Source: an uncultured delta proteobacterium
Lineage (GTDB): Bacteria > Myxococcota_A > Polyangia > Polyangiales > Polyangiaceae
Length of the DNA stretch: 64,000 bases
Direction: 5' to 3'
Assembly (NCBI GenBank): GCA_963696385.1
Contig: CAVOKF010000008.1
Span: 576,001-640,000 of the forward strand
The translations under genes and the position numbers were made by a program. Below are positions 1-21,818 of this stretch, in pieces. The notes below the pieces were generated by a model. That model worked only from the letters and a program-made list of their open reading frames with translations. It was not told the DNA's origin and made no database searches. Position 1 is the stretch's first letter, and every line of letters begins with the position of its first letter.

Positions 1-509
1 CGGCGCTCTCCGGGAGCCGGCGCCCGCACTTCGACCACGCGCTGCCGCTCGCCATCGACCGGGCCTCCGGTGGCCCGATCCACCGAGACCCCCAGATCGC
101 GAAGCGCGCCCTCGAACTGCGCCTGAAGCACGCGCAAGCCCCTGCCCAGGGATCCGTGGACGCCGGCGTCGAGCGGCCGTGCGGCGGCGAGCCAGCGCGC
201 GAGCAGCCCCCGGGGTGCCGTCCGGCGGCGCAGGTCGAACGCCGCGGCTTCTGCCGCCACGCGTTCGATCGCGTCGGCGACCGGGATGAGCGCCCGCAGC
301 CAGCGCTCCCCGTCGTCGGCCTCCGCGGTCGCTGGATCGACCGTGTCTTCGAGGTCGTCGTCTCGCATCTCTTCGGCCTGCGCACGGAGCGCATCGAGGC
401 AGGACTCGGCCGCGGCCTGCGCCGCAATCGCCGCACGCCCCTGCCGCCGTACCTCTTTGAGCAAATCGTCGAGGCGCACAGCCAGATCTTCCAGAGACGG
501 ATCGCTCAT
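1..509 (-). CDS. GrpE-like nucleotide exchange factor (3' end runs off the window)
   Basis: Not in the ORF track; translated by hand from ATG at 509, which overlaps the upstream stop as ATGA: MSDPSLEDLAVRLDDLLKEVRRQGRA...ERWLRALIPVADAIERV...GLRVLQAQFEGALRDLGVSVDRATGGPVDGERQRVVEV. This fits the GrpE coiled-coil / LPxxDxxER / GV...G..FD pattern, and the gene follows a J-domain gene. Confidence 0.7.
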   Translation of the reverse strand, partial: MSDPSLEDLAVRLDDLLKEVRRQGRAAIAAQAAAESCLDALRAQAEEMRDDDLEDTVDPATAEADDGERWLRALIPVADAIERVAAEAAAFDLRRRTAPRGLLARWLAAARPLDAGVHGSLGRGLRVLQAQFEGALRDLGVSVDRATGGPVDGERQRVVEVRAPAPGER

Positions 510-9371: not shown

Positions 9372-9659
9372 CGGACGGCATCTTAGGCGACAGGGCGAAA
9401 TTCGAATGGCTCATCGCCCTCGTTGGACGTCCGCAGCAGCCGCGCTTGCTGGCTTGGTCGGGACAGCGCGGCTGCCGCTCGCCTTGGTTACGCTGGCACT
9501 CGGCCTATAGTGCCGCCGCGTTAGCTCATGACAAATAGATTGTTCTTGAGCCACGGCATTCCCGCAGACGGTCCTAGCAAGGAATTGCGAATCGGCCGTG
9601 GCACCAATTGGCTAGCACGCCTCGCCGAGGCCAAGCACCCCGTCGATATCAGAGGACGG

Positions 9660-12600
9660 ATGTTTCGCTACCGAGTCTTGCTGGCTCTCCTCGGGTGCCT
9701 GACAGCGATCGGTGCGCCGGCGACTGCGAACGAGACGACTCTGGTCGTGTCGCGTGAGGACCCTTCGTTCGACGTTGCTACCAGCCGCCTTGCAGCGGGC
9801 CGGGATGGTCGCGTCTATCTTGCCAGCAACCGCTTCGTTTTGGGCCTGTGGCCCGATGGATCCGGCAAGGCGGGCGGTGCCGTAACCTACGCGTTGCAGA
9901 TGGCGGCGGCGAACGCGGCCGGCGTCATCGCAACCGCGAATGCGCACTTCAATCACAGTGTCAATCTTTGGAGTCGCGATTTCACACACATCGGCGCGGT
10001 CGCGGACTTTCTCGTAAACGACCAGGTCCAGTGGTGGTCGCCGACGGACGTCGAGGCTGGCGAGAGCGGCGACTTCTACGGTCTCGACGCGAACCGACGT
10101 CGCATCGTCCGGGTCGCAGCGCCTGGACGCATCGTCACCACGTACTCGCTGGAACGCATCGCCGAGAGCACCGTCGGCAAGGTGCCCCAGCTGCGGGTCT
10201 GGGAGCGGGGCCGCCGGTTTTACGTGCTCAGTCAAAGCGGAATGGTCTCCGTTGTCGCCTTCGACGGGGCCTTGCTGTGGTCGACGCGTCTGCGCCCAGG
10301 CGGCTTCGACGTCGACGACAACGGCCGGCTCCTCGTCCTCGCAGGGACTGAAGACACCGTTCAGATTTACGACCCCGCGGGGAAAGCTTTGGCGCCGTTG
10401 CACGTGCATATGGGTGAACGCAAAGGCCGCGTGAGCGACTTGCGGGTGTTCCACGACAACCTCTTCGTCAAGCGGACAGACCCCACCGAGCTTTTCGAAG
10501 TATACGACCGCGCTTCTGGGGCCTTTCGGCGCGTTGTTCCGGCCGATGCGGAGGTCTTTCGAATTTCGCTTCCGAGCGCGATCTGGACGGCCGGCGCCGA
10601 CGTGCCTATCTCGGTTCAGCCGCTGCCATCCGACCACCCACCGCCGTCGCGGTGGCGCGCGTGGATCCGGCCGCTGGGCTTACCGGATTTCGCGGAGCTC
10701 CCATTTCGCAACGGACAGGCGAGCATTCCGCCCGACCTCGGGGGGCTCTATCAGCTGCGCCTCTCTCCCGACCTGCGAGGGGGGGACGGAGAATACCAAG
10801 TCGACAGCTCGGTCGATATCGTGGCACCGGGCCACCGCGGCGGGATTTCGATTTTCACCCCCAACAACCGATTCTACTACGGACGCGGAGAACCCATTCC
10901 CGTCACCGTCGTCGTTCGCGTGGGTGACACGTCCGAGAGGCCTGCGAGAATTCCGATCAAGCTCGTTGAGCATGGCCAAACGATCGCAGAGTGCGACGTC
11001 GATGTGCACCCCGAAGCGGTTTCACATCTCGATTTGAGTCCAGCACTGACCCGCGCCCTTCGGCCCGACCGCTACTCGCTGACGACCGAGGTCGCAGGGT
11101 TCACCGTAGCGTCTCAGCCGATCGAGATCGGCCCGGGCATCGAGCAGGCCCCAACGTTTAGCCTCGTCCAACATGGCGACTACGCGGCGTCGTTCCCTGC
11201 CGGTGGCATCTTTACCGCCCCCGAGAAGGTCGAAGCGCATTTGAACCGCGCGAAAAAGCTCGGCATCAATATGTTCGTCGATCGCTTGGGTCACGGCTTT
11301 GCAGGTGTATTGCCGCGAGTGGACCAGATGCTCACGGCCCAGGATCTGGTCTCGACCTTGAATGGCGACCCAGCTGCTGTCTCGCCCGAGAAGGCGACGG
11401 TCGAAGGGCCGGTACGCGCGAGCATCGCAGGATATGGGGCCTACGGCATTGAGGAGCGCGCCATTCTGCTCAGCATGGATGCGGGGCTTCCGCTCGGGAC
11501 CGGATACGACTCGCGCACGCCGGAGCAGATGATGGAAGCGGTCCGACACGTGACGACGAGCTTGCTGCCGTATCCGGCATTTCGCGGGTGGAGCTGGGCC
11601 GCAAACTGGTGGGTCCAGAAGCTCGGCGAGGATGCTGCCGACGGGCCCGCGGAAAGGGCCGACTACCGCGCAGCCCTCGGCCGGGCGGAGACCACTGGGA
11701 AGTGGGATCCGGTGCTCGACCGCGTCTCGGACCGGATGCTCGCTCCGGCGGTCGACGCGGAGCAGCGGCTCGATGCCGTCCTGCAACGAACGGCGCCCGG
11801 CAAGCTGAGCGTTATGACAGGCCCCTACCGCGCGGTGGGAGTTCTGCCGCCCGTCACGTTTCGCGCAGCCGACGAAGTCGACCTTCACTATCAAGCCGAA
11901 CAGATTCAGCCGCCGGAGGTCACGCCCGAGAACGTGGACTTCTACAAACGTCCGGGCAAGCGCGCGTGGGGTCACCCCGAGATCTGGAACGACGACGGCA
12001 CCGGCGCCATGCTTTTGCCCACGTTGTTGCAGATGGCCATGCGGGGTGCCGACGGGGTCGGCTGGTCCGGGGAGCAACCATGGAACGGTTCCGGCCCGAG
12101 CGATCCCCGGGCTTCGGCGCCCGGACAGCTGTCGGTCCTACGTGCGGTCGGTCAGCTGCTTCGCAACTATGGGCCCTGGCTCACCACGCTGCACGGCGCC
12201 GATCGCGTGGCCATCGCGGTGTCGTCGCGGATGATGCGAATCGATCATTGGGGGTCGAGCACGATGGGAGAGTACTTCGGTCGTCTGTACGAGGCGTACG
12301 GTGCGTGCCTTTACGCACACCGGCCCGCGAGCTTCGTATTTTCCGATGACGCTACACCCGAGACGCTGAAGCCTTTTCGCGCCGTGCTGGTCGTCGACCA
12401 ACGCGTTGAACTCGATCCCAGTCTTTCTGCCGCGCTCACGCAGGCCCGCGCCGCCGGCGTTGTGGAGTTCTACGACGGGGCGTCGCGTCCGGAGGTTCTT
12501 GGTGGCCTTACGCCGCTCGGAATCGCCTTCGATCAAGTTCCCCGAGATCCGAGCGTTTGGCAGGACGATTCCGCATACCGCCGAATTCCTGCTTACTTTG

Positions 12601-15548
12601 AGAAGGACGCCGAGACATTGCGTCGCGTCCTCGCCCCGTCGGTCACGCCTGTCGCGGAGGTCGACGACGCGGAGATTTTGCTCACCGAGCGCGTCTCCGG
12701 ACCGGGCCACTTCGTGTGGGTCGTCGACAACATCATCCCCGATCTGGATCCCGGACTCGCCTGGCGCACGGGGTTGATCATGTCGACGCGGTTGCCGCGG
12801 ATGGCACCCGTCAAGTTGAGCCAACCAGGCGGCGCGATTTACGATGTATTCGCTCTACGAGAAGCAAAAGCCACGAACGGAGTCATCGATGCGGATCTCC
12901 GCACCATGCCAGCGCGCCTTTACGCGATCCTGCCGCGCCGGATCGATGCCGTCGAGGCGACCGCGCCCGCAACCGTCGATGCCGGAGCGACGTTCGACTG
13001 GAGCGTGATCGTCCGTGACGACCGGCATCGTCCAATGGCTTCGAGCCTTCCGGTGCACGTCACGCTCGTCGCCAGCGACGGCTCCGTGATCCAGGAGACG
13101 ATCGGGGCAAGCTCCGCCGGCGGAATGATCGCCGGTCGTTGGGTCATGCCGCTCAATGCACCCTCCGGCCCGCTTGCCTTGCTGGCGTCGGAGCTCATCT
13201 CGGGCAAAACCGTGAGCGTTCCGATCCGCGCAGTCGTCGCTTCGCAGCCGGCAAATCTCCAGCAACGGGTACCGCATGCGGACCGGGCCACCGACGCCCC
13301 GATCACCGCGATAGGGCGCGCAGCGGACGCCGCAGACGCCCCCATCGAAGCGCGCTTCGGGCCCCACCTCAAAGACGTTGCCGTGTCGGGTAGCGGCGAC
13401 CTCGCCGTCTTCAACGCCATGAACTGGGACCAGAACCTGTATGCGGTGGATCTAAAGACTGGGGATGTTCGATGGCGTCGTCGCCTTGGGCATCATTTCA
13501 GTTACGATCCCCGCAGCACGGCGAGCGCCTTCGCCGTCCAGGCGTTCGATCGAACCTCCGCCGAGGGATACCACCTCTATCTGCTCGACCCGAACGGCAA
13601 GCCCGAGCGTCGCTTCGCGCTCTACGGCTTGCCCAAGCGAGCAACTACCTGGGACACGGGCCTCTACCCGGCCGACCGCATCGATCAATTTGCCGCGTCG
13701 CCGGCGGGCGATTGGGTCGCTAGCTCCGGCGATCTCGGTGTCGTCGTGTGGGATCGCGACGGTCGGCGACGTTGGAGCGTAGACGGGTGGAAGACGGGCG
13801 AGCGTCACATCACGCTGCTCGCCGCATTGGATCGCGAGACGCTCGTCGGCGTCGATTCGACGACGGTGACCGCGTACGACGCGCGCCACGGATCCCGTCG
13901 GTGGACGATTCGACTCGCCGCAACGGGCCATGCTCTCGGTGCGGTTGTGGGCGCGCCAGCGTCGAAAATGCTTGCGGTTCGGACCGACACAGACGGGGGG
14001 CAAGTATTTCTCATTCGCGACGGGAAGCTCCTGGCGGCCGTTCCGTCGCCGGCGGACGACCTGGCGCTATCGCCGGACGGTGAGCGGTTGGCCGTCACGA
14101 CGGGCACGTCGCTCAAATGGTACTCGAACTCGGGCGCCTTGATCTGGAGTTTCACGGGCGACGACGTGCTGCGCCGTCCGACGATTAGCGTCGATGGTCA
14201 GCGGATCGCGGTCGGAAGCGAGCTCGGGACTCTGTACGTCCTGTCTGCCTCTGGGCAGATTTTTTGGGAGCACGATTGTCAGGCGTTGCCGGTAGCCCAC
14301 TGGCTCGACGGAGGTGATTTGCTGGTCGGATCGTGGATGGGACACGTGCAGCGTTTCGACGACGGCTACCGTGAGATCTGGCACACGCACCTCTCGCCCA
14401 CGACCCGCGACATTCGTCCGGCGCTTCTAGCCAAGGATGCAACGCCGACGACGCGCGTCGAGTCGTGGGGCAACGCGGCGCCCACGGCCGCACCGCTCGT
14501 CCCGAACCTGCTGACTGAAACGCACGCGCTCATCCACGCGACGATGAACGACCGCCGTCAGGAGTGGCAGAACCCGATCGCGGCGATGACCGACGGTAAG
14601 CCCGACCCACCGCCTGGGCCGTGGCTCACGTGGACGTCGATCAACTACGTCGACTCGGGCTGGTTTGGGCCCCTGAGCTTCGAAGTCGACACCTTCCATT
14701 CGCAGATCCGGCTTCGAGGCATCACGTTCGTCGAGGATGAGTCGCACCCGGAATCGTGGTCGCGCGATGTCCGCCTCCAATCCTGGGATGCTGCGCAAGA
14801 GCGATGGACCGACGGCCGTTGCCTGCTGTCGGACACCGCAACGCACACTCACTGGCTGGATCCGCCCCTCGAAGCGGCTCGCTTTCGATTCGTCACGACG
14901 GGTGGCGCAGCGTGGCCCGTTGGCAACATCCGTTTGGGAGAGATCGTGTTTCACGGAGAGCTGCTCGGCGGCTCCCATCCCGACGTCGCCGCGAAGAGAG
15001 CCATCGCCGTGCTGTTCGACGAGCAAGAGAGCGACTTTCGGACGATGATCCGTGGACGGGACCACCCGTTTTCGATCGCCTTCGGAGACGCGTATTCAGG
15101 CGGCAAGTCGCTCGTATTGACGGCGGCGGGCACGACCGCGCCCGCGTACGAACCGCCGTTCGGTCATGCCCTGCCCGATTGGGACTTTGAAATCGAAGAG
15201 CACCCCAAGCCGGGACAATACCGATGGATTCAGTTCGCGTGGAGAGCGCTCTCGCCAGACACCACCGGCATGTCGCTGCTGCTTGGCAAACCGTGGCCCG
15301 GCGGCGGTTATGCCTTCGAGGCGGGGACGCAAGCATGGCGCGAGGGCGTCCTTGCGACGAAGAGTGTGGCAGCGGCGCCGCCGCAGGCCTGGCAAGTCGT
15401 GCGTGCGGATCTCTGGTCGCTATACCGGCATCCACTCCGCATCCAGGAGATGAGCCTCGCCGCTACCGGTGGGGGCGCTGCGTTCGACCAAATCGTGCTC
15501 GGACGGACAGAAACCGACCTGGATCGCGTGGCGAGAGCCCCGCCATGA
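9660..15548 (+). CDS. Giant secreted multidomain protein (beta-propellers, putative glycoside-hydrolase-like barrel, carbohydrate-binding-like C-terminus), 1962 aa
   Basis: ATG at 9660 follows AGAGGA. Signal peptide MFRYRVLLALLGCLTAIGAPATA. Propeller repeats (GFDVDDNGRLLVL; LYAVDLKTGDVRW; LALSPDGERLAV). Trp-rich C-terminal modules. Confidence 0.8.
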   Translation: MFRYRVLLALLGCLTAIGAPATANETTLVVSREDPSFDVATSRLAAGRDGRVYLASNRFVLGLWPDGSGKAGGAVTYALQMAAANAAGVIATANAHFNHSVNLWSRDFTHIGAVADFLVNDQVQWWSPTDVEAGESGDFYGLDANRRRIVRVAAPGRIVTTYSLERIAESTVGKVPQLRVWERGRRFYVLSQSGMVSVVAFDGALLWSTRLRPGGFDVDDNGRLLVLAGTEDTVQIYDPAGKALAPLHVHMGERKGRVSDLRVFHDNLFVKRTDPTELFEVYDRASGAFRRVVPADAEVFRISLPSAIWTAGADVPISVQPLPSDHPPPSRWRAWIRPLGLPDFAELPFRNGQASIPPDLGGLYQLRLSPDLRGGDGEYQVDSSVDIVAPGHRGGISIFTPNNRFYYGRGEPIPVTVVVRVGDTSERPARIPIKLVEHGQTIAECDVDVHPEAVSHLDLSPALTRALRPDRYSLTTEVAGFTVASQPIEIGPGIEQAPTFSLVQHGDYAASFPAGGIFTAPEKVEAHLNRAKKLGINMFVDRLGHGFAGVLPRVDQMLTAQDLVSTLNGDPAAVSPEKATVEGPVRASIAGYGAYGIEERAILLSMDAGLPLGTGYDSRTPEQMMEAVRHVTTSLLPYPAFRGWSWAANWWVQKLGEDAADGPAERADYRAALGRAETTGKWDPVLDRVSDRMLAPAVDAEQRLDAVLQRTAPGKLSVMTGPYRAVGVLPPVTFRAADEVDLHYQAEQIQPPEVTPENVDFYKRPGKRAWGHPEIWNDDGTGAMLLPTLLQMAMRGADGVGWSGEQPWNGSGPSDPRASAPGQLSVLRAVGQLLRNYGPWLTTLHGADRVAIAVSSRMMRIDHWGSSTMGEYFGRLYEAYGACLYAHRPASFVFSDDATPETLKPFRAVLVVDQRVELDPSLSAALTQARAAGVVEFYDGASRPEVLGGLTPLGIAFDQVPRDPSVWQDDSAYRRIPAYFEKDAETLRRVLAPSVTPVAEVDDAEILLTERVSGPGHFVWVVDNIIPDLDPGLAWRTGLIMSTRLPRMAPVKLSQPGGAIYDVFALREAKATNGVIDADLRTMPARLYAILPRRIDAVEATAPATVDAGATFDWSVIVRDDRHRPMASSLPVHVTLVASDGSVIQETIGASSAGGMIAGRWVMPLNAPSGPLALLASELISGKTVSVPIRAVVASQPANLQQRVPHADRATDAPITAIGRAADAADAPIEARFGPHLKDVAVSGSGDLAVFNAMNWDQNLYAVDLKTGDVRWRRRLGHHFSYDPRSTASAFAVQAFDRTSAEGYHLYLLDPNGKPERRFALYGLPKRATTWDTGLYPADRIDQFAASPAGDWVASSGDLGVVVWDRDGRRRWSVDGWKTGERHITLLAALDRETLVGVDSTTVTAYDARHGSRRWTIRLAATGHALGAVVGAPASKMLAVRTDTDGGQVFLIRDGKLLAAVPSPADDLALSPDGERLAVTTGTSLKWYSNSGALIWSFTGDDVLRRPTISVDGQRIAVGSELGTLYVLSASGQIFWEHDCQALPVAHWLDGGDLLVGSWMGHVQRFDDGYREIWHTHLSPTTRDIRPALLAKDATPTTRVESWGNAAPTAAPLVPNLLTETHALIHATMNDRRQEWQNPIAAMTDGKPDPPPGPWLTWTSINYVDSGWFGPLSFEVDTFHSQIRLRGITFVEDESHPESWSRDVRLQSWDAAQERWTDGRCLLSDTATHTHWLDPPLEAARFRFVTTGGAAWPVGNIRLGEIVFHGELLGGSHPDVAAKRAIAVLFDEQESDFRTMIRGRDHPFSIAFGDAYSGGKSLVLTAAGTTAPAYEPPFGHALPDWDFEIEEHPKPGQYRWIQFAWRALSPDTTGMSLLLGKPWPGGGYAFEAGTQAWREGVLATKSVAAAPPQAWQVVRADLWSLYRHPLRIQEMSLAATGGGAAFDQIVLGRTETDLDRVARAPP

Positions 15549-16414: not shown

Positions 16415-18277
16415 CTACGGCGCGTCCCACGTTCCGACCCATGCGCGGCCCGCCCGAACGCAAGCCACATGCGTCGTATCGTTACTGATTGCGCAATCGC
16501 GCTGCTCGGCGAACGTCCCGTCGAGCTCAGAGCCGCGCAGCCAGCGCGAGCGCCCAGGACCGCGAACGATGAAGCCCACGTCGGTTGGCACGACGTAGGT
16601 CCGGCCGTCGGGCGAGCGCGGGGCGCCCGGGCGCATCGGCTGGCCCAGAAACGTGGCCAAAAGCGATGCGCGCGTGAGATCGGACGAGACCAAAATCGGC
16701 TCGCCATCGACGATGGCTTCCAAGCCGGCCGGGCCCCACGCCACAGGGGTCGTCTGCGTCGGCGCTCCGCGCGACCCCGTGCATCGGCCCGCGAGGGGCG
16801 GCGCCACCGGCAGCGCCACGTCGCGATTGTCGTCGCCGCTGGCGAGCTCGAACGTCGCTCGGAGCGGCAGGCCGTCGCACGGGTCATACGCCTCAATCCA
16901 GCGGGCGCCACCGTCGGGGGATACAACGCGCGGATCCCAATCCGGTACGTTCGCGGCGGCTTCGTCGCCGAAGTCGGGGTCGACGCGCACAACGCCAGCT
17001 CGTGTGCGAACCAGAAGCTTGCCGCCTGGTTCAAACGCGAGAGCGCCCCACGTCGGCTCGTGACTGCGAGGCGCGACCGGGACCGCCGCCACGGCACGCA
17101 CCAAGCGGGCGGTCGCCGCGGGGGCCAGTGCTGCGAGCCACTTCTGCGCCTCGGCCACACGCTGCGCCGTATGCGTCGCGGGCGGACGCTCGGCGCGATC
17201 GAGCGCCAGCGCGGTTCGAAGCGGATCGCCCATCGTGGCATACGCGCGTACGACGGCGAGGCCGAGGTCTTCCAGCGCGCGCCCGCTCCCGCACGTGATG
17301 GCGCCCGTGCCGGCCACGGCGAGCAGGCGCGGCGAGCCGCCGTCCGCGCACGCGGCGCGCCAAAGGGCACGCACTTGCGACGCATAGTTGGGCACTTCGG
17401 GAGCGTCCTGCATGTTCTTCGCGTGCCTCGTGGCGAGCGCCGCGAGCATCGAGAACGAGACCTCGGTCACCGTTGCGTCGCGGCTCAGACCGGCGGGACG
17501 ATCCGACCAGGCGAGAGTCGCCGAAACGCGTGGCCCCGGCTCGAGCGGTGGCCCACCGCCCTCGAGCATGACACGCAGGGCCACGTCGTCGCGCCCGTCT
17601 GCGTCCCGGTCAGAGACTTCTGCGTCGAGGGTCAAGGCGGGGGCGCCCTCAGGATCGGCGACGGTCGCGGCGAGGCGCACTTTGGGGTTCAGGCCACCGT
17701 CGATGACCGCGACCCAGCGCGCAGGACCCGTGGGCGGATGCTGGAGGCACTGCGCGCCCAGCTCCGCAAGGACGGAGCGCGCGCCGACGGCGACCAGCCG
17801 ATCGATCGCCAAGCAGTCGGCGTCTCGCGAAAGGCCCGCGGGCGGCGCAAATGTCGCCGCAACGGCCAGGATTCCGTCGTCGCCCGCTCCTCGGTAGTAG
17901 AGCACCTCACCGGGATCGTTGCCTTCCGCGGGGCGCGCGATGGCAAACGCTTCTTTGGCCCCGTCGCCGTCGAAGTCGCCGATGAGCGCGGAGGCGAAGA
18001 CGAGTCCATCCGGAGCGCCCAGCGTCACGCCCTCGACGATCCATTGCGTCGTGTTGGGCGGGGCTGCGGTCGCGTCGCGCTCGGCAAACCCGTCACCCGA
18101 CGAACTGGCGTCGGTGCCTCTCGACGCCGCGCTCATCGCCCCCTGCCCCATCGCCCCCTCCGGCTGCGCCGAGCCGATCGTGTACGGCACATAGGGACGA
18201 CCCCCTCGGCAGCCATGGCACCCCGCGCCCGCAACGAGGAGGACGGCGAGCAACACTCCGGGGACGACGTTCGCCAT
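16415..18277 (-). CDS. Putative lipoprotein with FG-GAP/DxDxDG-like motifs
   Basis: MANVVPGVLLAVLLVAGAGC lipobox; GDFDGDGAKE and DRDADGRDD motifs; propeller-like C-terminus (SPDG repeats). Confidence 0.75.
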   Translation of the reverse strand: MANVVPGVLLAVLLVAGAGCHGCRGGRPYVPYTIGSAQPEGAMGQGAMSAASRGTDASSSGDGFAERDATAAPPNTTQWIVEGVTLGAPDGLVFASALIGDFDGDGAKEAFAIARPAEGNDPGEVLYYRGAGDDGILAVAATFAPPAGLSRDADCLAIDRLVAVGARSVLAELGAQCLQHPPTGPARWVAVIDGGLNPKVRLAATVADPEGAPALTLDAEVSDRDADGRDDVALRVMLEGGGPPLEPGPRVSATLAWSDRPAGLSRDATVTEVSFSMLAALATRHAKNMQDAPEVPNYASQVRALWRAACADGGSPRLLAVAGTGAITCGSGRALEDLGLAVVRAYATMGDPLRTALALDRAERPPATHTAQRVAEAQKWLAALAPAATARLVRAVAAVPVAPRSHEPTWGALAFEPGGKLLVRTRAGVVRVDPDFGDEAAANVPDWDPRVVSPDGGARWIEAYDPCDGLPLRATFELASGDDNRDVALPVAPPLAGRCTGSRGAPTQTTPVAWGPAGLEAIVDGEPILVSSDLTRASLLATFLGQPMRPGAPRSPDGRTYVVPTDVGFIVRGPGRSRWLRGSELDGTFAEQRDCAISNDTTHVACVRAGRAWVGTWDAP

Positions 18278-18336
18278 GCTCGAAATGTGGATGCACGATA
18301 GACAAGTCTCCGCCCGCGTGGGAGCTTCCGTGAGCC

Positions 18337-19188
18337 ATGGCGCGAGCCGTCGCGATCGCGATTGCTTTTCTCGGGGTCGTCTCGCTCGCGGCGACCGCGA
18401 GCGCATCGGACGACGCCTCGAGCGCCGAGCCGCTATCGAGCCTCGATCGAATCCGGAGCGATCCTGCGGTCGCCAACGATCCGCGCGAGATCGATGCGTT
18501 GGCCCGCGAGGCCGAAGGCCTTGCGCCGGGTCCGTTGCGGACCCAAGCGCGGATGATCGTGGCCGAGGCCTGGCGGGGACGCATGCAGCGTCCAAACGAC
18601 GCCATCGATGAGCTGCGCAAAGTCACGGGCGATCCAAGCACCGATCCAGTGACCGCAAGCCTTGCTGAGCGAGAGCTCGTCGACGCCCTTTTGGCCAACG
18701 GCAAGCTCGAGCAAGCCGCCGAGGAGGCACGCGCCCACGCCGCACGACTCGATCCGCCGTTCGTCGCACGCGTGCTACGGCTTGGTCGAAGGCCGACCTG
18801 GACCCTGGCGGCGATGGCGGATCTTACGGCGTACTTCGCCCTGGCCTTGCTCGCCATCGTGCACACACGGCGCACACGCACGTGGGAAAGGGTGGTCCGT
18901 TCCGTTCGGCAAATGACCCCACTCGCCGTCGGGTTCGCGGCTTACGTCGCGATCGTGGGAGGGGTGCTGGCCGCGCAGTACGAGACCGGCAACTCAGGCC
19001 CCTTCCTCGTCCTCGGCGCCGCCCTCGTGCCGCTCGTTCTGGTGGCGCGGGCCTGGAACGCCGCGTCGTCGGGGAGTCTTGCCGCACGCCTCGGCCGGGC
19101 CATTCTGTGCACGACGAGTGTCTTCGCCGTGGCGTTCCTGGTCCTACGCGCTATCCGGTCCGATTACCTCGACGGGTTCGGCCTGTGA
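18337..19188 (+). CDS. Membrane protein with signal peptide, extracytoplasmic TPR-like helices and about 4 C-terminal TM segments
   Basis: Hydropathy pattern read by eye; its stop overlaps the next start as GTGA. Confidence 0.75.
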   Translation: MARAVAIAIAFLGVVSLAATASASDDASSAEPLSSLDRIRSDPAVANDPREIDALAREAEGLAPGPLRTQARMIVAEAWRGRMQRPNDAIDELRKVTGDPSTDPVTASLAERELVDALLANGKLEQAAEEARAHAARLDPPFVARVLRLGRRPTWTLAAMADLTAYFALALLAIVHTRRTRTWERVVRSVRQMTPLAVGFAAYVAIVGGVLAAQYETGNSGPFLVLGAALVPLVLVARAWNAASSGSLAARLGRAILCTTSVFAVAFLVLRAIRSDYLDGFGL

Positions 19189-19427
19189 GTGGGGAGCGCG
19201 CCGTCGACGAACGGAGCATTCGCCGTGTCCGCATCGGGTCCGGCGCCAACTGCTCGAGCATCGGAAGCGCCATCGACACGCTGTTCGCGACAGCGGTCAC
19301 GGGAGCCGCGATCTTCGCGGCCGTCGTCGCGGCGCTGAAAACCGAGCCCATCCAAGTCGTTGGACAGACGTCCAACGACAATCCATTGCGCGCGCCGGGC
19401 ACGCGCGACCCGGAGTCACCCCCGTGA
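19185..19427 (+). CDS. 80-aa membrane-anchored peptide with RxGxxxNCSS motif, candidate radical SAM substrate
   Basis: MSGERAVDERSIRRVRIGSGANCSSIGSAIDTLFATAVTGAAIFAAVVAALKTEPIQ...ESPP*. GTGA overlaps at both ends (19185-19188 and 19424-19427). Confidence 0.75.
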   Translation: MSGERAVDERSIRRVRIGSGANCSSIGSAIDTLFATAVTGAAIFAAVVAALKTEPIQVVGQTSNDNPLRAPGTRDPESPP

Positions 19428-20590
19428 TCGTCCGCTATGAGCCTTGGGGTGCTTGGGTCAAGCTTGAATCGACAGCCGCCATCGTGGCCCTCGACCGGGA
19501 CGGTGTCCGCGCCCTCGGACTCAACGGCGGAGCCACATGGCAAGGACCGCCGCGGCCCAGCGCGCCGCTGGAAGTTCATCTCGCCGTCACTTCACGCTGC
19601 GGCGCGGGGTGCGATGGGTGCTACCTGGACGCCCAGCCGGATGGGGTCGAGCCGCCTCGCGCCGCGATCGAGCAGGAGCTCGACGCCATGCGCGACGCAG
19701 GTGTCTTCACGGTCGCGTTCGGCGGCGGGGAGCCGACGACACGCGAAGACATCGACCTCCTGGCCGCGAGCGCGCGGGCCAGGGGCCTGACGCCAGTCGT
19801 CACGACGAGCGGCCTTGGGCTCACCGACATCCGCGTCGAGCGACTGCGCTCCTTCGCGCAAGTCAACGTAAGCTACGACGGGCCTGATGCGACCTACGCA
19901 ACCGTGCGCGGCTTTGATGGCGCCGCCCTGGCCGAACGGGCCATCGAGAAGCTCGCGCGCGCGGGGATCCGCGTCGGCGTCAACGTGGTGCTTACGCAGC
20001 AGAGTTTCCCGCGACTGGCCGAGACGATCGAGCGTGCACGAACGCTCGGCGCGTGCGAGGCCCAGCTGCTCCGCTACAAGCCCGCAGGGCGCGCAGCCAC
20101 GGTGGAGTACTGGACGCGGCGGATGCACCCCGATCAAGCTCGGACGTTGGGTCCGACGCTCCGAGCGCTCACGACGGCTTACGCAGCCAGCGGGTTTTCG
20201 ATTCGCATCGATTGCGCCCTCGTTCCGTTCCTTTCGGCCGACGAGGAGCTCGGCCAGGACGCGACGCGCCTGGCCCGCTTCGGCATCTTTGGCTGCGAAG
20301 CCGCTGGAGGTCTCGCCGCGGTCACCGTGGACGGGCTCATCGCCCCGTGCAGTTTTGCCAAACCGTCGCAGCTAAGTGCTGCCCATCTGAACGGCGGCTA
20401 CGCCGTGGACGCCGAGCTCGGGCGCTGGCGGGCGTACAACGACGCGCCGGCGGAGCCGTGCGCGTCGTGCTCACTGCGCCCGGTCTGCAAGGGCGGGTGC
20501 AAGATTGTAGCGGGGTGGGTCACGGGATCTCACGGACCTGACCCGGAGTGCCCACGCGTTCTCGCATATCGCGAGCCCCGCGCCACGTGA
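19424..20590 (+). CDS. Radical SAM/SPASM domain protein
   Basis: CGAGCDGC (CxxxCxxC) and GGGEP motifs; SPASM cysteines C-x17-C and Cx2Cx5Cx3C-x16-C. Confidence 0.92.
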   Translation: MIVRYEPWGAWVKLESTAAIVALDRDGVRALGLNGGATWQGPPRPSAPLEVHLAVTSRCGAGCDGCYLDAQPDGVEPPRAAIEQELDAMRDAGVFTVAFGGGEPTTREDIDLLAASARARGLTPVVTTSGLGLTDIRVERLRSFAQVNVSYDGPDATYATVRGFDGAALAERAIEKLARAGIRVGVNVVLTQQSFPRLAETIERARTLGACEAQLLRYKPAGRAATVEYWTRRMHPDQARTLGPTLRALTTAYAASGFSIRIDCALVPFLSADEELGQDATRLARFGIFGCEAAGGLAAVTVDGLIAPCSFAKPSQLSAAHLNGGYAVDAELGRWRAYNDAPAEPCASCSLRPVCKGGCKIVAGWVTGSHGPDPECPRVLAYREPRAT

Positions 20591-20898
20591 AGACCGCCTG
20601 GATTCCGGGAACACTGCTCGCGCTCGCATGGGGCCTCGTGATTGAGGTGGACGCGTACGCGGCAATGCGGGTGGTCCAGGTGCTCACTGGGCCCCAGGCC
20701 GACCCCGCCGCGATTTCCTGGAGTGTCCACTCGGGCTTTTTCTGGCGCGTCCTTACTGTCGCGTACGGTGGGGGAATCGCGGCGTTCGTCGCGTTCGTTG
20801 TCGTGCGCCGACGAGTCGCGCTCGCAGCGCGCGGGCTCGTGCCGGCCGTTGCGATTGCCGGCGGTCTATTGGCCTTGCAGAGTACGTTCTTTCCTTGA
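20587..20898 (+). CDS. Small membrane protein with about 3 TM segments
   Basis: GTG start overlaps the radical SAM stop as GTGA; three hydrophobic stretches. Confidence 0.72.
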   Translation: MKTAWIPGTLLALAWGLVIEVDAYAAMRVVQVLTGPQADPAAISWSVHSGFFWRVLTVAYGGGIAAFVAFVVVRRRVALAARGLVPAVAIAGGLLALQSTFFP

Positions 20899-21050
20899 GA
20901 ATTTCAGCGCTGTGCCCACACCCGCGAGCAGGGCTTGCGCAAGCAGGACATCCAGGCACCGGGTGCGGATCTTCCGTCGCGGACGACGTCGGCTTCGTGT
21001 AGGGTGCGCGTCGCGCGAAGGAAGCTCACGCGAAGGAGACTGCGAGAATC

Positions 21051-21818
21051 TTGCGACTCGATGGGCCGTCGCGCATGGGCGCACTCGCGGGCGCAGTACT
21101 CTGCCTTTCCGGCTGCCCGAACCCGAACGCCTACACCGTGCCGCGAACGCTCGAACCGGGCGACTTGCAGGTTGTCGTCGCGGCCGAAGTGTATGGATTC
21201 GGCACCAACATTGCCAATCCAGCCACAGCGGGCAGTAGCCCTCCGTCGTCCACGGTCTGGGGAGCGACCCCGCTATTGCCGACCATCGGCATTCGGTACG
21301 GTCTCGTCGAAGGAGTGGATGTCGGAGCGCGCTTCGAGAACTTCCAATCGCTCGCCGGTGACTTGAAGCTTCGTTTGCTTCGAGGCAATTTGGACATGGC
21401 GATCGACCCTGGCTTGGATGCCATCTATGTGGATACCGAAATAACCAACGCGGATACGACCACGGTGACGCGGAACGCCGGCGTGTTCTATTTGCATGCG
21501 CCGCTGCTGCTTGGCCTCAACTTCTCGGACTCCCTGACGCTGGTTGCGTCTCCCGGCCTGGCCTACGCCATTGCGACAGGACCGTTGGCCGGGGCGAGCC
21601 ACGCCGAGCAGGCCGGCGCGTCAACCGCGCTCCTGGCACGTCTCGGGTTGGGCGTGGATGTTCGCACGAGCGACCAGCTTGCCATCCACCCGGAACTGAC
21701 CTGCATGAGGGGTTTCAACAGTGCGCAGTCGCTTCTGTGCATAGTCGGTTTGGCTTTGAACATTGGCGCGCAGGCCAACTACGACGACCTGCGTCCCGCC
21801 CAGCCGTCGGAGCAGTAA
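21051..21818 (+). CDS. Putative lipoprotein / outer-membrane beta-barrel-like protein
   Basis: LAGAVLCLSGC lipobox (possible ATG at 21075); amphipathic beta strands (IGIRYGLVEGVDVGARF). Confidence 0.7.
   Translation: MRLDGPSRMGALAGAVLCLSGCPNPNAYTVPRTLEPGDLQVVVAAEVYGFGTNIANPATAGSSPPSSTVWGATPLLPTIGIRYGLVEGVDVGARFENFQSLAGDLKLRLLRGNLDMAIDPGLDAIYVDTEITNADTTTVTRNAGVFYLHAPLLLGLNFSDSLTLVASPGLAYAIATGPLAGASHAEQAGASTALLARLGLGVDVRTSDQLAIHPELTCMRGFNSAQSLLCIVGLALNIGAQANYDDLRPAQPSEQ

Follow-up and report, generated by a model that had tools for sequence, protein, structure and literature searches.

Radical S-adenosylmethionine (SAM) enzymes that carry a SPASM domain are known for making released peptides (sactipeptides, streptide) and soluble cofactors (pyrroloquinoline quinone or PQQ, mycofactocin) and for maturing soluble enzymes (sulfatases and quinohemoprotein amine dehydrogenase or QHNDH). 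In the last of these, the SPASM enzyme QhpD cross-links the small gamma subunit QhpC before it is assembled into an envelope complex. A further SPASM enzyme, CrpC of Methanococcus voltae, places ranthionine cross-links on the protein CrpA, according to the abstract that describes it (PMC13692751). Here we describe a four-gene operon, g1 to g4, from a 64,000-nucleotide stretch of DNA of an uncultured delta proteobacterium of the Polyangiaceae (contig CAVOKF010000008.1, forward strand positions 576,001 to 640,000; the whole stretch is called the window below). In this operon a radical SAM/SPASM enzyme, g3, is encoded with a small membrane protein, g2, and with two further membrane proteins, g1 and g4. 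The enzyme's partner appears to be a membrane-anchored mini-protein that is kept rather than released, and in much of the phylum it is fused to the enzyme itself. The genes and their main features are as follows, in window coordinates.

18337-19188 (+): g1, membrane protein of 283 amino acids
19185-19427 (+): g2, 80 amino acids, GTG start
19227-19268 (+): g2 residues 15-28, strand V15-R16 and Gly-bounded loop G18...N22-C23-S24-S25...G27-S28
19248-19256 (+): g2 N22-C23-S24, core of the motif
19278-19337 (+): g2 residues 32-51, hydrophobic helix and predicted membrane anchor (19-residue mean hydropathy 2.26)
19424-20590 (+): g3, 388 amino acids, GTG start, radical SAM/SPASM enzyme of an uncurated family
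19424-19558 (+): g3 residues 1-45, small N-terminal beta domain with conserved R4, E6, G9, and A10
19598-19621 (+): g3 CX3CX2C radical SAM cluster motif, C59/C63/C66
20213-20551 (+): g3 SPASM region with eight Cys, C264-C376, from TIGR04085 and conservation
20587-20898 (+): g4, 103 amino acids, GTG start, about three transmembrane segments

A conserved four-gene set around an orphan enzyme

Conservation of the four-gene set extends across Myxococcota. Within the genus, strong g3 orthologues (E<=1e-80) are present in 19/24 genomes, a count that includes the unpublished genome G010 (18/23 without it), and they are present in 6/16 genomes of other families of the order. Among 23 related loci of this close set, in which genes were located by tblastn, 21 have g2, 17 have g1, and 14 have g4, with the order g1-g2-g3-g4 throughout and g2 directly before g3 in 21/23; the two loci that lack g2 are the truncated L008 and L014. 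In the window the genes are joined by three GTGA stop/start overlaps (19185-19188, 19424-19427, and 20587-20590). These overlaps, from which an earlier sequence-only reading of this DNA had concluded that the four genes are translationally coupled, lie at the coordinates it gave and recur as 4-nt overlaps at 10/17 g1/g2, 18/21 g2/g3, and 12/14 g3/g4 junctions of the close loci, counted with start codons picked automatically as those nearest to the aligned start. The same reading had named conservation of gene order as a check, and the order recurs both in the 23 close loci and among 80 loci of named species, where g2 is followed by g3 in 74 and all four genes are present in 46. These 80 loci were found by the g2 motif and overlap partly with the other sampled genomes, so that they are not independent; among their carriers are Labilithrix luteola DSM 27648 and Polyangium fumosum DSM 14668, along with two Polyangium isolates.

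The association of g2 with g3 extends to genomes in which the two are not neighbours. Across 201 evenly chosen genomes of the window's order, a g2 profile built from 21 orthologues finds g2 in 65, g3 is called in 67 (E<=1e-40), and 64 have both. The four exceptions are one genome with g2 only, at a contig end (G184), and three with g3 only (G088 and G160, both at a contig end, and G206, in fragments). In 16/64 genomes g2 and g3 are non-adjacent, either on separate contigs or at a distance of 0.7-5 kb or, in G153, of 2 Mb. Of ten such loci that we fetched, L025, L030, L031, and L032 keep g1-g2-g4 together, with g3 2-4 kb off or convergent, while L026 keeps g1-g2 and L027 keeps g2-g4. One genome, G215, has g1-g3-g4 at one locus (L034) and g2 on another contig (L033). 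The co-occurrence of g2 and g3, together with the way g2 stays with g1 and g4 when g3 lies apart, ties g2 to the membrane proteins and to the enzyme alike. Full-text literature searches, on which alone we base the statement that the gene set is not in print, found no paper describing it, and Pfam and NCBIfam hold no curated family for g1, g2, g4, or the g3 clade.

g3 is a complete radical SAM/SPASM enzyme, and profile comparisons support placing it outside every characterized small-molecule or peptide family. It passes the radical SAM model PF04055 (56.3 bits, cut-off 29.5) and the SPASM model TIGR04085 (35.1 bits, cut-off 27). Beyond the three cysteines of the cluster motif it has eight more (C264, C291, C309, C346, C349, C355, C359, and C376), which follow the SPASM pattern CX9-15GX4C...CX2CX5CX3C...C as C291...G304-x4-C309, C346-x2-C349-x5-C355-x3-C359, and C376, plus C264, and all 11 are kept in 130-132 of 132 family members, including all 8 loci with the Ser-type g2 described below. 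To judge by their number, the eight SPASM cysteines should suffice to ligate two auxiliary [4Fe-4S] clusters fully. The sequence-only reading had thus been right about the complete SPASM set, and its question whether g3 falls in a characterized small-molecule family is answered in the negative, all specific cut-offs being missed: 54 NCBIfam models of specific families match, none at its cut-off. The scores include 80.8 bits against MftC (TIGR03962, cut-off 265; no mft genes nearby), 69.6 against a haloarchaeal pseudo-SAM family (cut-off 525), 64 against PqqE (TIGR02109, cut-off 381.35; no pqq genes), 64 against NirJ (TIGR04051, cut-off 515.45), 63.8 against AhbD (TIGR04545, cut-off 500), 52.7 against AhbC (TIGR04546, cut-off 650), and 39.5 against Tes/GDGT-MAS (NF045702, cut-off 450). 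Database relatives are labelled only "radical SAM protein" and come mostly from Polyangiaceae metagenome-assembled genomes.

Structural comparison places g3, modeled as a partial TIM barrel like other radical SAM structures, nearest to peptide maturases. Its best sequence match in the PDB is PqqE (E 2.9e-22). An AlphaFold model built from 30 sequences (mean predicted local distance difference test score, pLDDT, 88.8) has as its closest solved structures SuiB (Z 28.6), SkfB (26.6), CteB (24.6), the anaerobic sulfatase-maturating enzyme or anSME (24.1), ChlB (23.7), and PqqE (23.1; VIA, ranked by Foldseek), and enzymes with non-peptide substrates rank after them (BlsE 21.5, viperins ~20, and GDGT-MAS 20.0, the last a partial match with 253 of 493 residues aligned). 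The SuiB match aligns 352 residues over the g3 model range 1..378, and since it begins at residue 1 the N-terminal domain of SuiB is covered. In g3 this region (residues 1-45), the short N-terminal beta extension of the sequence-only reading, is indeed modeled as three strands (2-6, 9-14, and 19-24) with two short helices (DSSP of the AlphaFold model), while Pfam returned neither a PqqD family nor a recognition element (RRE) for peptides that are ribosomally synthesized and then post-translationally modified (RiPPs) in g3 at E<=1. We propose that this domain may be the docking site for the g2 strand.

The described systems each share some features with this module. QhpD and QhpC are our favored working analogy, in that a dedicated SPASM enzyme is paired with one highly conserved small protein that is a subunit of an extracytoplasmic or membrane assembly. 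However, g3 scores 33.6 bits against the QhpD model TIGR03906 (cut-off 453), and no QhpA/B/E/F/G genes accompany the module. Unlike QhpC, g2 contains just one Cys (or Ser), carries a hydrophobic helix, lacks a Cys/Asp/Glu/Trp pattern, and is often fused to the enzyme. The anSMEs (AtsB, anSMEcpe), which act on Cys-type and Ser-type sulfatases, would be alike in targeting only Cys or Ser and in acting on a protein and not on a RiPP; they too have eight auxiliary-cluster cysteines, and they align to g3 over 310 residues. Nevertheless, their motif C/S-x-P/A-x-R is absent from g2, where the sequence N-C-S-S-I-G-S offers neither P/A at +2 nor R at +4, so that g2 falls outside their substrates by motif; there is no sulfatase gene, g3 has the extra N-terminal beta domain, and no anSME model is among the best 25 of its 54 NCBIfam matches. 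SuiB (with its peptide SuiA, which receives the Lys-Trp cross-link of streptide), SkfB, and CteB are peptide maturases of the SPASM/Twitch type whose N-terminal domain binds the peptide, yet their sequence identity to g3 is 17-21% and their substrate motifs differ. The N-terminal domain of g3, at ~45 residues, is also roughly half an RRE, which consists of three strands and three helices and takes up the leader as an extra strand. MftC/MftA and PqqE/PqqA give the top sequence scores and likewise pair the enzyme with a tiny, almost invariant peptide encoded beside it, but the module has no separate MftB or PqqD chaperone and no downstream mft or pqq genes, and g2 differs from MftA and PqqA in being membrane-anchored and in having its motif near the N-terminus rather than the C-terminus. 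CrpC would be alike in modifying a whole protein from its own cluster and not a short released peptide, whereas CrpA is Cys-rich and soluble and g2 has one Cys or none; the abstract reports no fusion or membrane partners for CrpA (PMC13692751).

The module thus differs from the Qhp, anSME, Mft, Pqq, Sui, and Crp systems in its membrane-anchored partner, its dedicated membrane proteins, its frequent fusion, and its motif. Should g2 be modified, the module would define a novel type of membrane protein modification, aimed at one sharply defined residue that is either Cys or Ser, and would show a maturase tethered in nature to its own substrate. It also lends itself to experiment, with a site of one residue, three architectures (split Cys, fused Cys, and split Ser) that offer natural comparisons, and cultured carriers.

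The g2 motif, its fusions, and the membrane partners

g2 has a constant build across its family: a variable N-terminus, an alternating hydrophobic/polar stretch that ends in V-R-x, a loop G-x-x-x-N-C-S-x-x-G, a hydrophobic helix, and a variable acidic and Pro-rich tail, which we take to be disordered and which is its least conserved part. As the sequence-only reading had it, the window protein is an 80-residue membrane peptide, with one hydrophobic segment (residues 33-51) by the 19-residue Kyte-Doolittle scan used throughout. G18, A21, N22, C23, S24, S25, G27, S28, and F34 are invariant in the 21 orthologues. A search of 1.84 billion representative sequences (clusters at 50% identity) returned 320 g2 clusters at E<=1e-3 and 243 at E<=1e-10, nearly all of 60-136 amino acids, and ANCSS is present in 150/150 of the family representatives listed. 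When all forms are compared, distant ones included, only G18, N22, [C/S]23, S24, and G27 remain constant. Pfam has no family for g2, and NCBIfam gave only two chance-level matches at E<=1, neither of them a sorting signal.

Three other interpretations of the motif were considered and set aside. A lipobox or sorting signal in G-A-N-C-S-S (e.g., MYXO-CTERM) does not fit, the 22 residues before C23 being polar, with no signal peptide and no curated model. A thioether between Cys23 and Asp31 was dropped on account of position 31, where close relatives have D/E/N but distant ones have N, G, Q, T, and other residues. Finally, the strand followed by Gly-[Tyr/Phe] in Ser-type g2 was compared with the glycyl-radical motif, which we take to be R-V-x-G-[Y/F]; the register is one residue off, g3 is a SPASM enzyme, and its structural match to PFL-AE has Z 15-17 vs 28 for SuiB.

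Over 146 split forms the helix has a mean 19-residue hydropathy of 2.22; over 37 fused forms the value is 2.04, with a minimum of 1.50. Lys and Arg within 15 residues of the helix average 0.21 on the N side vs 2.40 on the C side in split g2, with C exceeding N in 89% of 146, and are balanced in fused g2 (2.49 vs 2.41).

Distant relatives commonly encode g2 and g3 as one protein. In a phylum-wide sample of 401 genomes the g2 profile is found in 49; the 30 of these that belong to other orders than the window make up our distant set, and in all of them (30/30) the motif adjoins a g3 orthologue. In 22/30 loci g2 and g3 form a single open reading frame (ORF) that runs from motif to helix to a flexible Pro/Asp/Glu/Thr-rich linker to enzyme, and all 22 are Cys-type ([A/S]-P-N-C-S-[S/A]). 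The other 8/30 have a separate g2, always with Ser for Cys (G-[Y/F]-N-P-N-S-S-S, sharing the core NPNSSS), and Ser is the sole substitute seen for Cys at position 23. In this set g4 was detected in 19/30 loci and g1 in 7/30. A word search with the first 100 residues of one fusion found 35 database proteins of 419-569 amino acids with PF04055 and the fused build, which argues that the fusion is not a gene-calling artefact. Inside the window's order fusions are rare (L002, L019, and P0247), and they account for 3/80 named-species loci. We also considered whether fusions have lost the N-terminal domain of g3: hidden Markov model alignments start at position 30 or later in 13/22 fused vs 0/8 distant split loci, yet alignment A4 keeps the domain's invariant Arg, also in fused forms, and the domain has therefore diverged in fusions and not been lost. 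Two single-locus observations concern the fusions. At L019:3793-5205 (+), in genome G005, g2 and g3 begin in one frame, the middle of g3 is out of frame, and the frame then returns, indicating a frameshifted gene or an assembly error. In one distant genome a second small radical SAM protein with a weak HpnJ-like match (L068:2243-3145, +) lies directly upstream of the fused gene.

The fused protein P0275 (430 amino acids, identical to the L048 ORF) was modeled with AlphaFold from 41 fused sequences (mean pLDDT 90.5), and the model was read through its confidence values, DSSP, and alignment ranges. Its N-terminal part is predicted as follows.

P0275 residues 1-10: strand at residues 3-8, pLDDT 87
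P0275 residues 9-18: motif loop, pLDDT 63 (block 11-20)
P0275 residues 19-21: second short strand
P0275 residues 23-43: helix, pLDDT 59-73
P0275 residues 41-50: start of the linker, pLDDT 59 (block 41-50)

The motif segment is thus modeled as strand-loop-strand. VIA alignments of the model to small radical SAM cores cover residues 14..314 (PFL-AE, 3cb8), 7..355 (NifB, 7bi7), 4..388 (HydE, 7o1o), and 5..382 (DesII). Because these alignments begin inside the N-terminal piece, the model would pack that piece on the enzyme, and since a free N-terminal strand would be neither confident nor called by DSSP, the same packing is suggested by the strand itself. The g2 strand may therefore add to the N-terminal sheet of the enzyme (P0275 residues 55-77).

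Both membrane partners lack curated families. In g1 the scan marks a signal-like segment at the N-terminus and four more hydrophobic segments, with a helical, TPR-like domain of ~130 amino acids between the signal-like segment and the C-terminal segments. The protein matches 0 Pfam families at E<=1 and no NCBIfam family, and its nearest ESM-Atlas clusters are hypothetical, with TPR families on 10-15% of members. g1 had been described from sequence as a signal, TPR, and four-transmembrane protein; the signal-like N-terminus and the four segments stand, and the TPR assignment, with Pfam empty and this minority of ESM-Atlas members behind it, is less secure. Conserved positions in g1 include R40, P63, G65, R68, E70, R152, P222, F223, and the C-terminal G282-L283, and its large domain, which follows the signal-like segment, probably faces the periplasm. 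g1-like ORFs (a soluble N-terminal part, then three or four hydrophobic segments) also lie directly upstream of g2 in L051, L052, L058, and L065. g4, for which Pfam and NCBIfam have no family and the ESM Atlas only hypothetical or TPR-like clusters, agrees with its earlier description as a three-transmembrane protein, two segments being strong by scan and a weaker N-terminal one (~residues 5-25) being read from the sequence. Across 39 sequences Y24, R28, W53, and R54 are invariant and P40 is kept in 97%. These residues flank the first loop, opposite the basic turn between the second and third transmembrane segments, and this charge distribution suggests that the loop is probably periplasmic.

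Some lineages add a phosphoesterase and a porin to this set. In the fetched flanks of 70 loci (L001-L070) plus the window, a purple-acid-phosphatase-like metallophosphoesterase of ~480 amino acids (PF16656, Pur_ac_phosph_N, with PF00149, Metallophos) lies near the module in 13 loci, comprising six of split Cys type (L025, L026, L027, L030, L031, and L032; e.g., L025:5080-6507, -), five fused (L042, L046, L052, L057, and L065), and two of Ser type (L043 and L051). A lipobox-like signal was seen by eye in 9/10 of these sequences inspected, the tenth (L065) being N-terminally incomplete. An OprO/P-like porin occurs in 7 loci (L026, L027, L030, L031, L032, L056, and L058; e.g., L031:8036-9490, -); PF07396 is passed by the L031 and L058 porins, and tblastn ties the others to these two. 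In L032 six genes follow one another on one strand: g3, porin-like, phosphoesterase, g1, g2, and g4. Neither neighbour is present in the window, in the 23 close loci, or in any of the 80/80 named-species loci (within 3 kb), and the window genome has a single weak phosphoesterase match on another contig (E 2.1e-15). Their absence from the window and its close relatives marks the link as accessory. It nonetheless hints at an envelope function and, with a phosphoesterase lipoprotein and a porin involved, suggests that the module contributes to the physiology of the envelope or of nutrients in abundant soil Myxococcota. At one of these loci (L025:7784-10993, -; genome G046) a 1070-residue MtrC/MtrF-like multihaem cytochrome is encoded directly upstream of g3.

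Substrate or membrane anchor

We infer for g2 a substrate role, a site, a chemistry, and a final location. In the reading that we favor, on which we are evenly divided, g2 would be a membrane-retained substrate that binds the short N-terminal domain of g3 by strand addition and is attacked at its own Asn-[Cys/Ser]-Ser loop, and the four genes would be one copy of a Myxococcota-wide, uncharacterized protein-modification module. The N-terminal beta domain of g3 would grip the amphipathic g2 strand (~V15-R16) much as RRE domains hold leader peptides, the 5'-deoxyadenosyl radical would take a hydrogen atom from the ten-residue loop between two invariant glycines, and the modified g2 would stay anchored by its helix and work with g4 and g1 at the inner membrane. 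Attack might fall on the C-beta of Cys/Ser, giving oxidation towards an aldehyde or a thioether or ether cross-link. We favor such anSME-like attack because position 23 is restricted to Cys and Ser and because g3 has eight auxiliary-cluster cysteines like anSME; by this analogy it would be the likeliest single chemistry, although we hold it only tentatively and as unlikely in itself. The restricted site recalls anSME substrates, for which hydrogen abstraction at the C-beta of Cys or Ser has been described (PMC10114670). A more elaborate version, which we consider improbable, is that tethered g3 turns the loop, at the tip of a Gly-bounded hairpin, into a reactive group (a formylglycine-type aldehyde, or a stable cross-link or radical site) on a single-pass subunit, and that the N-tail is then flipped across the membrane as the active centre of an envelope complex with g4 and g1 and, in many lineages, with the phosphoesterase and OprO/P-like porin. 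If true, this would be the first membrane-anchored protein cofactor made by a radical SAM enzyme, as well as the first case in which a maturase is routinely fused to what it modifies.

Several observations weigh against g2 as a substrate. In every form the helix is sufficiently hydrophobic to cross the membrane, and because the radical SAM domain is necessarily cytoplasmic, a spanning helix would put the motif of the fusions in the periplasm, beyond the enzyme's reach. The charge bias of the split forms likewise predicts an N-out/C-in orientation, and the invariant g4 residues and the large g1 domain appear, from the distribution of charge, to be periplasmic. A substrate fused to its enzyme would limit it to a single turnover, which is unusual, and g2 is far more conserved than typical RiPP cores. 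The structural argument from the fusion draws on confidence values, DSSP, and alignment ranges of a single predicted fold. Two arrangements are possible: either the motif is modified in the cytoplasm before its short, uncharged loop crosses the membrane, or with a helix that is monotopic, or else the motif never meets the enzyme, so that g2 is an anchor and its loop works in the periplasm.

The second arrangement underlies an alternative that we regard as possible but doubtful, in which g2 is a membrane anchor or adaptor of g3 with its loop in the periplasm beside g4 and g1, and the enzyme acts at the inner face on something else, be it a lipid, a small molecule linked to a lipid, or another protein, for example g1, g4, or an enzyme that is exported. 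The order motif-helix-linker-enzyme in the fusions is the classic build of an N-terminally anchored enzyme, and the charge bias of 89% of 146 split forms and the probable periplasmic placement of the g4 loop and the g1 domain fall in line with it, as do the phosphoesterase in 13 and porin in 7 of 70 loci, which point to an envelope process, and the presence of SPASM enzymes with non-peptide substrates (GDGT-MAS, BlsE) among the structural matches. Yet an invariant Asn-[Cys/Ser]-Ser loop is not required of a plain anchor, and in split forms only the tail of g2, its least conserved part, would come within reach of a cytoplasmic enzyme. Peptide maturases are also the best matches in structure, no conserved lipid or small-molecule pathway genes lie beside the module, and the AlphaFold fusion model would place the N-terminal strand confidently on the enzyme. 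The fusions as such fit a tethered substrate and a plain membrane anchor equally well. The proposal of the sequence-only reading, an uncharacterized modification system whose product stays in the membrane, is partly borne out: the orphan enzyme, the conserved order, the co-occurrence of g2 and g3, the motif, the association of g2 with g1 and g4, and the lack of a protease or exporter in the window operon all agree with it, but the fusions do not separate it from an anchor.

Two further explanations look outside the membrane-retained module. As anSME genes adjoin their sulfatase genes, g3 might mature the neighbouring exported phosphoesterase, with g1, g2, and g4 as accessory escort or export factors, and the phosphoesterase does lie beside the module in all three architectures. 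We consider this very unlikely: g2 and g3 co-occur regardless of the phosphoesterase, which is missing from the window and from the close and named-species loci and has only its one weak match elsewhere in the window genome, and no purple acid phosphatase is known to need a radical SAM maturase. Highly improbable, in our judgment, is a classical released RiPP, with g2 as leader and core that a protease and transporter encoded elsewhere cleave and export. A small ORF lies directly upstream of a SPASM enzyme, translationally coupled to it, and the enzyme resembles RiPP maturases, but a RiPP cluster would be expected to pair a variable core with a protease or exporter, and neither is seen. The conserved part of g2 is near-invariant (150/150 representatives listed), unlike RiPP cores, every member has a hydrophobic helix, and there is no protease or exporter in the window operon nor among the families beside 16 distant loci. 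g2 is moreover fused to the enzyme in 22/30 distant loci and stays with g1 and g4 when g3 is apart.

Surroundings of the operon in the window

The operon is flanked in the window by a divergent gene for a 618-residue lipoprotein, a 255-residue ORF, a convergent murB, and an HrpB-type helicase. This annotation agrees with the earlier statement that the operon lacks pqq, mft, nir, sulfatase, protease, and exporter genes, none of which flanks it in the window. An Rfam search of positions 17800-21300 gave no match at E<=0.1. Farther upstream, a giant protein of 2006 amino acids (9528-15548, +) looks secreted, includes a beta-propeller stretch of BamB/PQQ_2 type, and matches MG2 weakly; the other fetched loci showed no relative. 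The 618-residue lipoprotein (16415-18271, -), which has no Pfam family, is kept upstream of g1 in five loci of the genus (52-58% identity) and, at 32% identity, in L034. The 255-residue ORF (21051-21818, +), with a lipobox-like start, lies between g4 and murB. It was considered as a member of the system and ruled out, having no match in any other fetched locus, and since murB directly follows g4 in other loci of the genus, it looks like an insertion specific to the window genome.

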